Part shown: positions 20,343 to 34,673 of the stretch, one piece after another
Position numbering within the stretch: position 1 is the first letter of the stretch
Layout of the letters: every line of letters begins with the position of its first letter
DNA from: a virus
Direction: 5' to 3' (one strand)
DNA length: 64,000 nt
Virus genome (UHGV): UHGV-2113617
Notes under the pieces: generated by a model
Seen by the model: only the letters and a program-made list of their open reading frames with translations
What the model was told of the DNA's origin: nothing
The model's database searches: none
Made by a program: the position numbers and the translations under genes

Positions 20343-20729
20343 CTATTCGAGGGAAAGAAGATACTTACTTTGGTAAAACATTCCAGTAATATCATCTATC
20401 GTGCTTTGAATGGCTGGAGGCATTTCTTTGTAAATGCTGTTAGATTGGTCTAGTATACGATCAATCATTTTAATTGTGTCGGTAGGAAGTTTACTAGCAT
20501 CTGGAATTGAAGGTGTGTATTTTCTACCAGAATACCCCAAATATTGCTCACCAAATTTATCAATCAAATCTGGCAACTCAGAGAAAATAAAATCGTATGC
20601 TTTGTGTCTAGCATAACTTTTAGTTTCAAAATGCGCAGAATGAAAATAAGCTTGTGCAGCCATTAATAAACCTAAGTATTCATCTGCCTTTGAAGGTTTT
20701 CCACTTTGTGAAAAGTCGCTGAATTTCAT
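20343..20729 (-). CDS. hypothetical protein (T4 rI.-1 position)
   Basis: 128-aa ORF overlapping rI stop. Confidence 0.6.
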
Positions 20730-21019
20730 TCAGTCTCCAATTTAATGTTCATAATTCTAGCGTATGATTGTGCCATCTCCGCGCCTCGTTCTATACATTC
20801 AAAATCGGAAGAGCACGGGTCATTTTTATAGGTCGTTCGCATAAAACTATAGAACTGTTCAGATGATTCTACGCTTTTATTTTCAAAAAGCATATAAACA
20901 TGTCTAATACCAGATTCCATAAATTTATCAAAATGAGGATCGACATTCGCTTCAATTGGTGGAGATAAAGCAAACGCTAATCCTAGCATGGCAAATAATG
21001 CCGTTGCTTTTAAGGCCAT
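20726..21019 (-). CDS. rI: lysis-inhibition regulator rI
   Basis: 97 aa with N-terminal signal-anchor MALKATALFAMLGLAFALS; matches T4 rI as recalled. Confidence 0.8.
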   Translation of the reverse strand: MALKATALFAMLGLAFALSPPIEANVDPHFDKFMESGIRHVYMLFENKSVESSEQFYSFMRTTYKNDPCSSDFECIERGAEMAQSYARIMNIKLETE

Positions 21020-22442: not shown

Positions 22443-22645
22443 GTAACCTTTAAGCAATATTCTTCTACATGCTGTTTACGACCTTTCTTATCAATAAAGG
22501 TATATTCAACGAATGTTCCAATATAGTCTTTATCTACATCATGTGGACTATTAATTGGGCATTTAGTACGGCAAATGCGTTCCCATTGACGAATAATTTC
22601 CACTTTGTTTTTAGGATCAAACGGATGCGGGTAATGTGCTTTCAT
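22433..22645 (-). CDS. hypothetical protein
   Basis: 70-aa ORF. Confidence 0.45.
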   Translation of the reverse strand: MKAHYPHPFDPKNKVEIIRQWERICRTKCPINSPHDVDKDYIGTFVEYTFIDKKGRKQHVEEYCLKVTWL

Positions 22646-23096
22646 AATCCACCACTATTAAATCAATATCAGGAGTAAACATGTCGATTAATTTAGAAAC
22701 CTTATCCCAATCACCGCCAGCAATACCACAACCTATGCGTGGAATGTAAATTACTGGTTTAAACAAAAGGGTTTCTGCCTGTAGATTTAATTCTATCATG
22801 CAGTTTACTAAAGCACCATAATCAAGATTAGGACCCGGTTCGTATTGTGTATACAGGTTATAGCATATACCAAATCCCGTAGGATTATGTTTAAAAACAA
22901 TAGACATATCGCCTAGTTTATCACGAGAACCGTACTCAGTAGTGGTTTTATCTATTTCTAAAATTTTAGGATAGGCCCTTGCTAATTGACCTGCTACACC
23001 TGAACCCATAGTATGAAAACAATTGCATCCGTGCGCAATAATATTACCTTGAAGAAATAGGGCGACAATATCGCCCTTGATATATTTTACAATCAT
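22617..23096 (-). CDS. macro-domain protein (ADP-ribose binding/hydrolase fold)
   Basis: 159 aa; GDIV...HGCNC...GSGVAGQLARA and C-terminal PRIGCGIAGG resemble macro-domain signature. Confidence 0.6.
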   Translation of the reverse strand: MIVKYIKGDIVALFLQGNIIAHGCNCFHTMGSGVAGQLARAYPKILEIDKTTTEYGSRDKLGDMSIVFKHNPTGFGICYNLYTQYEPGPNLDYGALVNCMIELNLQAETLLFKPVIYIPRIGCGIAGGDWDKVSKLIDMFTPDIDLIVVDYESTLPASV

Positions 23097-23434
23097 CTAG
23101 TACTCAATCCTCGATTATAAGAATCTACCAAACGGTCAACCATTGAATGACAAGCGGCTTTATCTTTCTCCTCCGCAACTGAACATTCTAAGGTATTCCA
23201 CTTTTTAGCATATCGTTTTAATAAAGTATCATTTTTGTATCTGCTTGATTTATCTCTTTCTCCGTCTTTATATGCATATATTAATTTCTGCGCAAATTCA
23301 GCTTGACATGCTTTATTTTTCCCACAATAATCTGCGGCAGTACGGTTTACATACTCTCTAATTTCAGTGTATGATGTATTTGCTAACGCAGAAAATGAAA
23401 TTAATCCTACACATAAAACCAAAATTTTAGTCAT
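23093..23434 (-). CDS. secreted cysteine-containing protein
   Basis: 113 aa, signal peptide MTKILVLCVGLISFSALA, four Cys in mature part. Confidence 0.6.
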   Translation of the reverse strand: MTKILVLCVGLISFSALANTSYTEIREYVNRTAADYCGKNKACQAEFAQKLIYAYKDGERDKSSRYKNDTLLKRYAKKWNTLECSVAEEKDKAACHSMVDRLVDSYNRGLSTR

Positions 23435-23972
23435 TTACTATTTCCAACAGTTTATTATTTTTAAGGTAGTTAGCCTTTTCTAGGACTTCAGAAGCATATT
23501 TAGAACCTGCTTTAACATTCCATCCCGAATTATAAGAGGATATTGCCTTTCTTATATCGCCCTTATGTATATTTAACCAATAAGAAAGTTCAATGTACGC
23601 CCAGGAAGCTGAATTGGACCGTTTATTCAACATTCTTTTTATTTCAGCATCGGTCATATTATAACCAAGTTCCTTAACTCTTGCTCGCATGGTCGGCAAA
23701 TAATTTTGGAACATTCCATAGGCATGATGCTTTGGTTTAGATTTTAAATTAACTCCGGCAGAGCTTTCTTGCCATAAAATAGCAGCCATTATATGACCTA
23801 ATCCACTCTTGTGGATATTTTTGTGTGTTTTATATTTTCCATCCTTAGAAAATTGTTCCCCGAATTGATATGCGTAACGCATGTTATCGAGTTGGACATT
23901 ACTGAAAGTATGCTCGGAGCTATGTGCCATCATTGAAATGGCCAATAGACCAGCGAGTAGTGCTTTTCTCAT
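23427..23972 (-). CDS. secreted lytic-transglycosylase-like protein
   Basis: 181 aa, signal peptide; motifs ES, GMFQ, YNSG match family-1 lytic transglycosylase motifs. Confidence 0.6.
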   Translation of the reverse strand: MRKALLAGLLAISMMAHSSEHTFSNVQLDNMRYAYQFGEQFSKDGKYKTHKNIHKSGLGHIMAAILWQESSAGVNLKSKPKHHAYGMFQNYLPTMRARVKELGYNMTDAEIKRMLNKRSNSASWAYIELSYWLNIHKGDIRKAISSYNSGWNVKAGSKYASEVLEKANYLKNNKLLEIVND

Positions 23973-23979
23973 GCTTACC

Positions 23980-24441
23980 TCATTGAGTTTTAATTACTGC
24001 TTTAGAAGCCTTTCCTGGTAAACGACGACTGTTGATAATTGCCATCCTGCACTGAAGTGACGGGTCTTTGAACTTCTCGTTAGGTTTACAAACTGTAAAT
24101 CCAAGCCAAAGATTTCCATCTGTGATTTCTAAACGCCCAGGACGATATTCAACCCCATCAATAAAATCCTCATTAATGTCAGGACGCGGAGGCATACTCA
24201 GGAATTCATTAACTTCTAAAACATGGTCTTTTATTTTGTGGAATAATTCAAAAACATATGTCTCATCAATCTCCCGTTGAATTGCACGATCAAGAAGATG
24301 CTGAGAATATTTTAGATGAAACGATGAGACCCCTGCTGCTTTTGATGCCTCACGAATCTCATTGTTAATTTGACGAAACTCCGACTCAAAGTGACGACGG
24401 AGCTTATTTCGACGGATAAAAACTTCTGTGTTGATAGTCAT
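23980..24441 (-). CDS. regB: RegB-like sequence-specific endoribonuclease
   Basis: 153 aa in the regB position; identity from memory. Confidence 0.55.
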   Translation of the reverse strand: MTINTEVFIRRNKLRRHFESEFRQINNEIREASKAAGVSSFHLKYSQHLLDRAIQREIDETYVFELFHKIKDHVLEVNEFLSMPPRPDINEDFIDGVEYRPGRLEITDGNLWLGFTVCKPNEKFKDPSLQCRMAIINSRRLPGKASKAVIKTQ

Positions 24442-24468: not shown

Positions 24469-24498
24469 ATTATACCACAGTCAAGAGGAAAAGTAAAC
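24469..24498 (-). promoter_or_regulatory. T4-type early promoter
   Basis: GTTTAC, 18 bp, TATAAT. Confidence 0.6.
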
Positions 24499-34490: not shown

Positions 34491-34673
34491 TTAACCTTTA
34501 GAAATTTTATCCATAGCAATAGCGATTAAACCAATTAAAAATGCTACTACAAGTGAAAAAACGTTTTCTGCTGTAGTTAATAATCCGCATATAAATCCAA
34601 CAAACATTGAAAAACTAAAAGCAGAAGCAGAAATTGCAATAGCAACATTTCGAATTAATTCACAGCGTTTCAT
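34491..34673 (-). CDS. small membrane protein
   Basis: 60 aa, two hydrophobic helices, GAGGAGAATAAA RBS. Confidence 0.55.
   Translation of the reverse strand: MKRCELIRNVAIAISASAFSFSMFVGFICGLLTTAENVFSLVVAFLIGLIAIAMDKISKG

Follow-up and report, generated by a model that had tools for sequence, protein, structure and literature searches.

Do T4-like phages send a pair of early proteins into the periplasm of their host, and can one of them be a protein long described as the partner of a cytoplasmic enzyme? The question is raised by two overlapping open reading frames (ORFs) of 181 and 113 aa, found in the ORF list at positions 23093-23972 on the minus strand of a 64,000-nucleotide stretch of UHGV virus genome UHGV-2113617 (hereafter the window). 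Judged by sequence identity and gene order, the two ORFs are orthologues of T4 vs.1 and vs and lie in the conserved early block regB-vs.1-vs-tk.4. We consider it probable that the products of this pair are made early and exported by the Sec pathway, Vs.1 as a periplasmic transglycosylase and Vs as a four-helix protein of the same compartment. The long-standing label of the 113-aa ORF, a binder of valyl-tRNA synthetase (ValRS), conflicts with export. An original prediction made from this DNA stands where it read signal peptides in both proteins and family-1 lytic-transglycosylase motifs in the 181-aa protein, whose predicted catalytic Glu we find to be invariant, but it did not identify the pair as known T4 genes.

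Identity of the pair and its predicted signal peptides

The DNA of the locus is ~98.7% identical to that of Tequatroviruses such as Shigella phage SF2-1 and Escherichia phage HY01, and 516 phage records cover at least 80% of the stretch; by this measure the source genome is a T4-like Tequatrovirus. T4 and these records label the genes regB, vs.1, vs ("valyl tRNA synthetase modifier") and tk.4. Identity to other Tequatrovirus versions is 99-100% for Vs.1 (T4 vs.1: NP_049725, UniProt P13311), and identity to the Vs of T4-like phages is 94-100% for Vs (T4 vs: NP_049724, P13310); gene order and gene overlaps are as in T4. The start of vs lies 8 nt inside the end of vs.1 (overlap sequence ATGACTAA), and the vs stop overlaps the tk.4 start (ATGA). 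The 8-nt overlap probably couples translation of vs to that of vs.1.

Both ORFs had been said to open with classical signal peptides, and both passed our rule-based call, which asks for a basic n-region, an uncharged h-region of 10-15 residues, small residues at -3 and -1, and no later membrane segment. The Vs.1 precursor begins MRK-ALLAGLLAISMMA-HS/SEHTF and the Vs precursor MTK-ILVLCVGLISFS-ALA/NTSYT, where the slash marks a cleavage site predicted after residue 18 in both (AHS/S in Vs.1, ALA/N in Vs). Mature Vs.1 is thus predicted to start with SEHTFSNVQLDNMR; for T4 Vs the predicted N-terminus after the signal is DTSYTEIR. The hydrophobic cores are uncharged, span 12-13 residues and reach a mean Kyte-Doolittle value over 9 residues of 2.74 (Vs.1) and 3.43 (Vs); in both proteins the early mature region is acidic or neutral and no further hydrophobic segment follows. 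Across the window, a crude rule filter passed 5 of the 156 ATG-initiated ORFs of at least 50 aa, three of them (Vs.1, Vs and RI) free of a later membrane-like segment. We take RI, the T4 lysis-inhibition protein, as an exported positive control of the filter.

This architecture is kept in all 32 Vs.1 homologues and in 9/9 Vs homologues down to 31% identity, although the signal segments themselves are less similar than the remainder of each protein (32% vs. 59% identity in the mature part for Vs.1; means of 36% vs. 53% in the rest for Vs). The 113-aa Vs of the window and a 115-aa variant (P0078; matched in T2, RB14 and RB18) differ by a two-residue indel inside the signal peptide, giving c-regions SALA/N and SASASA/D, respectively. 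Neither protein has a lipobox; C8 of Vs has L at -1 and is not conserved. Together with h-regions of only 12-13 residues, this rules out lipoprotein N-termini and signal-anchor-release (SAR) N-termini. These features point to Sec export and signal cleavage of both Vs.1 and Vs.

The placement of the pair in the early region agrees with an early-type promoter match upstream of regB (Table 1), likely the start of a regB-vs.1-vs transcript, and with T4, whose vs.1 and vs orthologues are classed as early RNA and middle protein in time-resolved omics. Both T4 proteins have been detected by mass spectrometry, and Vs.1 accumulates through middle and late times; a T4 time-course proteomics data set is public (Wolfram-Schauerte 2022, PMC9697503).

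Vs.1 as a predicted periplasmic lytic transglycosylase

Mature Vs.1 (from residue 19) has 163 aa, a mass of 18.8 kDa and an isoelectric point (pI) of 9.65. The ES, GMFQ and YNSG motifs named in the original prediction are indeed present, at residues 69-70, 86-89 and 147-150. In the classification of Blackburn and Clarke, family-1 lytic transglycosylases carry motifs II (G-L-M-Q), III (A-Y-N-x-G) and IV (Y...V/I), and Vs.1 has a counterpart of each (G86-M-F88-Q89, S-Y147-N148-S-G150 and Y159...V163). Nine residues (E69, G86, F88, Q89, Y147, N148, G150, Y159 and V163) do not vary across 32 homologues, and S70 varies little if at all. The same nine stayed fixed once homologues of 30-40% identity from Aeromonas, Kuttervirus and Felixounavirus phages had joined the alignment; each of these added proteins has a signal peptide of its own. 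In profile alignments, E69 falls on the RES of cod goose-type (g-type) lysozyme and the NES of EtgA, and the SYNSG of Vs.1 falls on the AYNTG/AYNAG of the same two proteins. The RES and NES motifs hold the catalytic Glu of g-type lysozyme and EtgA.

The motifs sit in a recognisable domain. Residues 61-154 of Vs.1 score 23.4 bits with the Pfam SLT profile (PF01464; E 4.8e-5), above the gathering threshold of 21.3, and of 32 diverse homologues 30 also hit the profile with E no higher than 0.01 (best 1.3e-7). PHROGs places Vs.1 in a family of unknown function with weak matches to lytic tail proteins and endolysins. An AlphaFold model built with 32 homologues has a mean predicted local distance difference test score (pLDDT) of 88 and a predicted template modelling score (pTM) of 0.83, and the signal peptide is its sole poorly defined part. 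The modelled fold is alpha-helical and lysozyme-like, with E69-S70 at the end of helix 59-70. The Pfam match, the predicted fold and the invariant catalytic Glu bear out the description of the 181-aa protein as lytic-transglycosylase-like, and the most economical reading of sequence and model is that Vs.1 is a soluble periplasmic family-1 lytic transglycosylase with predicted activity. That Vs.1 might merely keep the SLT fold as an inactive wall-binding protein would agree with its weak similarity to characterised enzymes and with a literature search that returned no activity for it. We think this very improbable, since the catalytic Glu and family motifs are invariant at 30-100% identity, as purifying selection on an active site would make them.

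By tblastn, the Vs.1 family occurs in 2085 phage records from Straboviridae, Kuttervirus, Felixounavirus and others. Beyond the T-even group the gene lies among early genes, by rIIA/rIIB or with nrdA.1 and a recombination nuclease, and not in lysis cassettes. This bears on the idea that Vs.1 is a second, back-up lysis enzyme that acts late in infection in the manner of a SAR endolysin. In its favour are the proposal of "some role in cell lysis" by Nolan et al. 2006 (PMC1524935), the 'putative lysin' annotation of the Felixounavirus homologues, and the accumulation of the T4 protein into late times described above. We nevertheless regard such a role as improbable: a SAR anchor would be rich in Gly/Ala and 20 residues long, whereas the core of Vs.1 has ~13 residues with a good cleavage site behind it, and in each phage group examined the gene keeps company with early genes (regB, rIIA/B, nrdA.1). 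Lysis fails in T4 e mutants, which implies that Vs.1 cannot lyse cells alone.

The transglycosylase prediction for Vs.1 is real and was correctly read, and it was already known. According to Nolan et al. 2006 (PMC1524935), the 2003 genome review (Miller et al. 2003) had reported SLT similarity of T4 vs.1 by PSI-BLAST, and Nolan et al. themselves recovered it in six phages, where Pfam gave E-values of 0.012-0.74. Some database entries name Vs.1 homologues "Transglycosylase SLT domain-containing protein", and one phage annotation carries "predicted non cytoplasmic domain". Our literature search for vs.1 or Vs in connection with a signal peptide found only Nolan et al. 2006 and the HIDEN-SEQ preprint. 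The present analysis adds that the fold can be assigned with confidence and that the Vs.1 family is broad and keeps an invariant set of residues, and it records the export and disulfide marks of Vs. Among early genes of large lytic myoviruses that still await characterisation, vs.1 is one of the most widespread, and new transposon data suggest that it makes a real contribution to fitness.

The wrong name 'RegB' or 'endoribonuclease', apparently transferred from the neighbouring T4 gene, is attached to Vs.1 homologues in several records (Salmonella phage heyday, FQ482083 phiEa104 and several UniRef names). A T4-group vs.3 homologue is likewise named 'RegB domain-containing protein'.

Vs, its valyl-tRNA synthetase label and the fitness of T4 mutants

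Mature Vs has 95 aa (11.0 kDa, pI 9.05) in a four-helix domain, and an AlphaFold 2 (AF2) model of the protein (pLDDT 85.5) is a four-helix bundle with helices at 15-37, 41-63, 68-84 and 89-110. Vs belongs over its full length to phrog_1256, "valyl tRNA synthetase modifier" (E 7.5e-40), and is 94% identical to the 115-aa form P0078, which has a precomputed PF26829 match; a search for a wider family of Vs gave no match in NCBIfam or in our local Pfam copy. Four Cys are found in every full-length homologue, including that of Klebsiella phage Mineola. Three of them (C37, C43 and C95) stand in invariant alignment columns; in the most distant homologue, P0090, a gap shifts the remaining one, the third Cys (C84). 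As placed in the model, the four Cys would form two disulfides that staple the helices. Between codon 5 and codon 98, vs has no in-frame ATG, GTG or TTG, which rules out internal initiation as the source of a signal-less, cytoplasmic Vs. N-terminally His-tagged T4 Vs went to inclusion bodies in a structural-genomics attempt; such insolubility is unspecific, yet it is what a retained hydrophobic signal peptide or a failure of disulfide formation would bring about.

The Vs family is small. A word-based search gave 6 clusters; when 1.84 billion representatives were searched exhaustively with a profile, only 8 proteins came back, all from the same small phage family. By tblastn, Vs is present in 796 phage records; the listed hosts are all Enterobacterales, and all examined records are Tevenvirinae. 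In every locus checked (Mosigvirus, phage fDHCT2, Jiaodavirus and Kanagawavirus), vs directly follows vs.1. An obligate partnership is ruled out by the Vs.1 homologues of Aeromonas, Kuttervirus and Felixounavirus phages, which have no adjacent Vs.

The Jiaodavirus Mineola has an extra 130-aa ORF between vs and tk.4 (L004:2363-2755). It carries a clear signal peptide (MKKAAILLCCAFSVNA/WEK), so that three predicted exported proteins stand in a row after regB.

The name of Vs comes from a different picture of the protein, in which it is the cytoplasmic tau peptide of ~10 kDa that binds host ValRS, its signal-like N-terminus is unused or only partly used, and its position next to Vs.1 is incidental. 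Work by Neidhardt and Marchin is said to have shown that the vs product, the tau peptide of ~10 kDa, binds the cytoplasmic synthetase; a temperature-sensitive ValRS is reportedly made more stable in vivo by T4 infection, an effect that is reportedly lost in vs mutants. Citing papers attribute ValRS binding by Vs to Muller and Marchin 1975/1977. The annotation as a ValRS modifier is carried by all records and by PHROGs, the computed mass of mature Vs is near that reported for tau, and the defect of a vs knockout is specific to minimal medium, in which translation is limited by the supply of amino acids. Set against this are the Sec signal peptide and four Cys kept through all of the Vs homologues, the lack of a start for a signal-less form, and probable translational coupling to an enzyme predicted to be exported. 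No evidence tying the genetic vs locus to this ORF was found in the literature that could be read, and ORFs of similar size (vs.3 and vs.4) lie nearby. We therefore hold a cytoplasmic Vs to be a serious possibility but an unlikely one: binding to ValRS needs a cytoplasmic location, and the features of the protein predict that it lies elsewhere. These export features, which fit poorly with a cytoplasmic target, are the only part of the whole finding that merits follow-up. The mismatch between label and sequence deserves a flag because the label stands on hundreds of genomes and frames the interpretation of the new minimal-medium phenotype.

That phenotype comes from T4, whose transposon fitness data are the sole functional data on the pair. 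In the HIDEN-SEQ transposon study, vs.1 and vs were non-essential in LB medium, with 30/32 and 46/52 TA sites hit, respectively. Competition between LB and M9-glucose made vs the most strongly depleted gene (log2 fold change, log2FC, -2.19, q=0; Data S8, 10.1101/2025.11.20.689424), and vs.1 was depleted less (log2FC -0.87, p 0.0055, q 0.155; 10.1101/2025.11.20.689424). A T4 vs knockout plaqued poorly only on M9-glucose. Even in LB, vs.1 and vs received only 22.6 and 26.6 insertion reads, compared with 178.6 for regB, 289.6 for tk.4 and 652 for vs.3. Counts about tenfold below those of neighbouring genes show that an insertion in either gene costs fitness, and the cost is greater in minimal medium.

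In the same competition, regB insertions were enriched (log2FC +1.17, p 0.049; 10.1101/2025.11.20.689424) and vs.1 and vs insertions depleted. If regB, vs.1 and vs share a transcript, polarity or altered mRNA decay could link these fitness effects.

The greater cost of losing vs than vs.1 in M9-glucose is also what one would see if Vs were a periplasmic inhibitor, an immunity-like partner of Vs.1 on the model of lysozyme inhibitors or effector-immunity pairs, whose loss leaves wall cleavage uncontrolled. Coupled translation, adjacency in Tequatro-, Mosig-, Jiaoda- and Kanagawaviruses, and the predicted periplasmic location of both proteins fit this as well. We find it quite improbable, because vs.1 insertions are not neutral and most Vs.1-bearing phages have no Vs.

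Taking the evidence together, we favour an early exported pair and picture its action as follows. The promoter in front of regB would drive early transcription of regB, vs.1 and vs, and Sec would export Vs.1 and Vs from early to mid infection. The Vs.1 precursor would be cut after A-H-S18, releasing a soluble, basic, 18.8-kDa single-domain enzyme into the periplasm, where E69 may act as the single acid/base catalyst and cut the bonds between N-acetylmuramic acid (MurNAc) and N-acetylglucosamine (GlcNAc), leaving 1,6-anhydro-MurNAc ends in the host wall. Such cutting would be limited and non-lytic alone, and would condition the wall in the pre-lysis period. Vs would be a small exported four-helix protein, probably with two disulfides, made together with Vs.1 and held in the same compartment. 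The joint effect would be a modest fitness gain, larger in slow-growing cells in minimal medium. As for the role originally proposed, wall remodelling at infection or superinfection exclusion is speculation, and nothing in this analysis supports superinfection exclusion.

Several observations count against an exported enzyme and its companion. The similarity of Vs.1 to solved lytic transglycosylases in the PDB is marginal: searches with the single sequence or with profiles gave no significant match (E 0.08-0.4, best 0.08), and it is the Pfam profile, the modelled fold and the motifs that carry the case for a transglycosylase. A literature search returned no report of enzymatic activity, localisation or processing for Vs.1 or Vs, and second-hand summaries describe the classical vs product as a binder of cytoplasmic valyl-tRNA synthetase. 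With Vs.1 in 2085 phage records and Vs in 796, most Vs.1 phages lack Vs, and Vs.1 therefore does not need it. The depletion of vs.1 could be mere polarity on vs, and the M9-glucose phenotype of vs also fits a role related to translation. A further step would be to see the disulfide-stapled periplasmic Vs and Vs.1 as a small early 'periplasmic module', to read the minimal-medium defect as an envelope phenotype, and to assign the 50-year-old ValRS-modifier function to another ORF nearby or to the Vs precursor before export. We offer this as a tentative and rather unlikely extension.

Neighbouring features and relation to known systems

The remaining two ORFs that passed the signal-peptide filter are probably small membrane proteins, to judge from their later hydrophobic segments (Table 1). 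Downstream of the pair, a G+C-rich hairpin (AGGGCGAUAUUGUCGCCCU) with a U-rich tail lies at 23059-23077 (minus strand) inside the 5' end of tk.4/adfM. It begins 19 nt past the start codon of tk.4 and shortly beyond the vs stop, folds with -14.3 kcal/mol (z -2.1), and carries a 'terminator' annotation in phage vB_EcoM_SP1. The hairpin could partly end the regB-vs.1-vs transcript or modulate tk.4 translation. The macro-domain protein Tk.4 is labelled 'phosphatase' in many records, a label that looks outdated; T4 Tk.4 is an anti-DarTG2 factor and has been renamed AdfM (preprint 10.1101/2025.11.20.689424).

Table 1. Features of the vs.1-vs locus and of related ORFs, in positions of the window.
Feature	Positions	Strand	Basis or remark
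vs.1 orthologue	23427..23972	-	181-aa precursor, predicted periplasmic family-1 (GH23/SLT) lytic transglycosylase
vs orthologue, annotated 'valyl-tRNA synthetase modifier'	23093..23434	-	113-aa ORF
Vs.1 signal peptide, residues 1-18 (MRKALLAGLLAISMMAHS/S)	23919..23972	-	rule-based; low pLDDT 53-54, detached from fold
Vs signal peptide, residues 1-18 (MTKILVLCVGLISFSALA/N)	23381..23434	-	rule-based
E69-S70, predicted catalytic Glu motif (WQES)	23763..23768	-	E69 invariant in alignments
G86-M-F-Q89, GLMQ-type motif II	23706..23717	-	G86, F88, Q89 invariant
Y147-N-S-G150, AYNxG-type motif III	23523..23534	-	Y147, N148, G150 invariant; downstream Y159, V163 also invariant
Span of four conserved Vs Cys codons	23150..23326	-	pairs at helix1-2 and helix3-4 turns (AF2 model)
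Vs Cys codons	C37 23324-23326; C43 23306-23308; C84 23183-23185; C95 23150-23152	-	alignment
regB, first gene of block	23980..24441	-	Pfam REGB_T4 1.2e-68
tk.4/adfM macro-domain gene	22617..23096	-	Pfam Macro 5.8e-8
Early-type promoter match upstream of regB, TTTACT-17-TATAAT with TG	24469..24497	-	consensus scan only
RI lysis-inhibition protein	20726-21019	-	N-terminal export/anchor signal and conserved CX5C pair
Further filter-positive ORFs, 137 aa and 60 aa	13322-13735 and 34491-34673	-	later strongly hydrophobic segment

Among T4 proteins, the RI antiholin is of the same size class as Vs, is likewise helical, and also has an export signal at its N-terminus and a CX5C pair, but the two show no detectable homology. 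The possibility that Vs is an RI paralogue was rejected (BLASTP E 0.5; hhalign probability 1%, with only the CX5C stretch aligned). Spackle is another small exported protein of T4.

Vs.1 shares only 13-19% identity with the bacterial family-1 lytic transglycosylases (E. coli Slt70, MltC and MltE; Pseudomonas MltF, Slt and MltD). Unlike these enzymes, it consists of one small domain with a cleavable signal and no lipobox and is predicted to be soluble rather than anchored in the outer membrane; it also has its own N-terminal helix and hairpin (residues 25-57), is encoded by a phage and is made early. In architecture it comes closest to the small "specialised" transglycosylases of secretion systems. 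Such enzymes, among them EtgA of the enteropathogenic E. coli (EPEC) type III system, are recruited by a partner and open the wall locally for an envelope-spanning machine; we know of no such machine or partner for Vs.1. The specialised lytic transglycosylases of secretion and conjugation machines also include IpgF, VirB1 and P19. Other phage enzymes, such as the N-domain of T7 gp16, phiKZ gp144 and phi6 P5, act from outside at entry or at lysis, as virion proteins or endolysins. In contrast, Vs.1 is encoded among early genes and is predicted to be a free protein, made early and exported by Sec.

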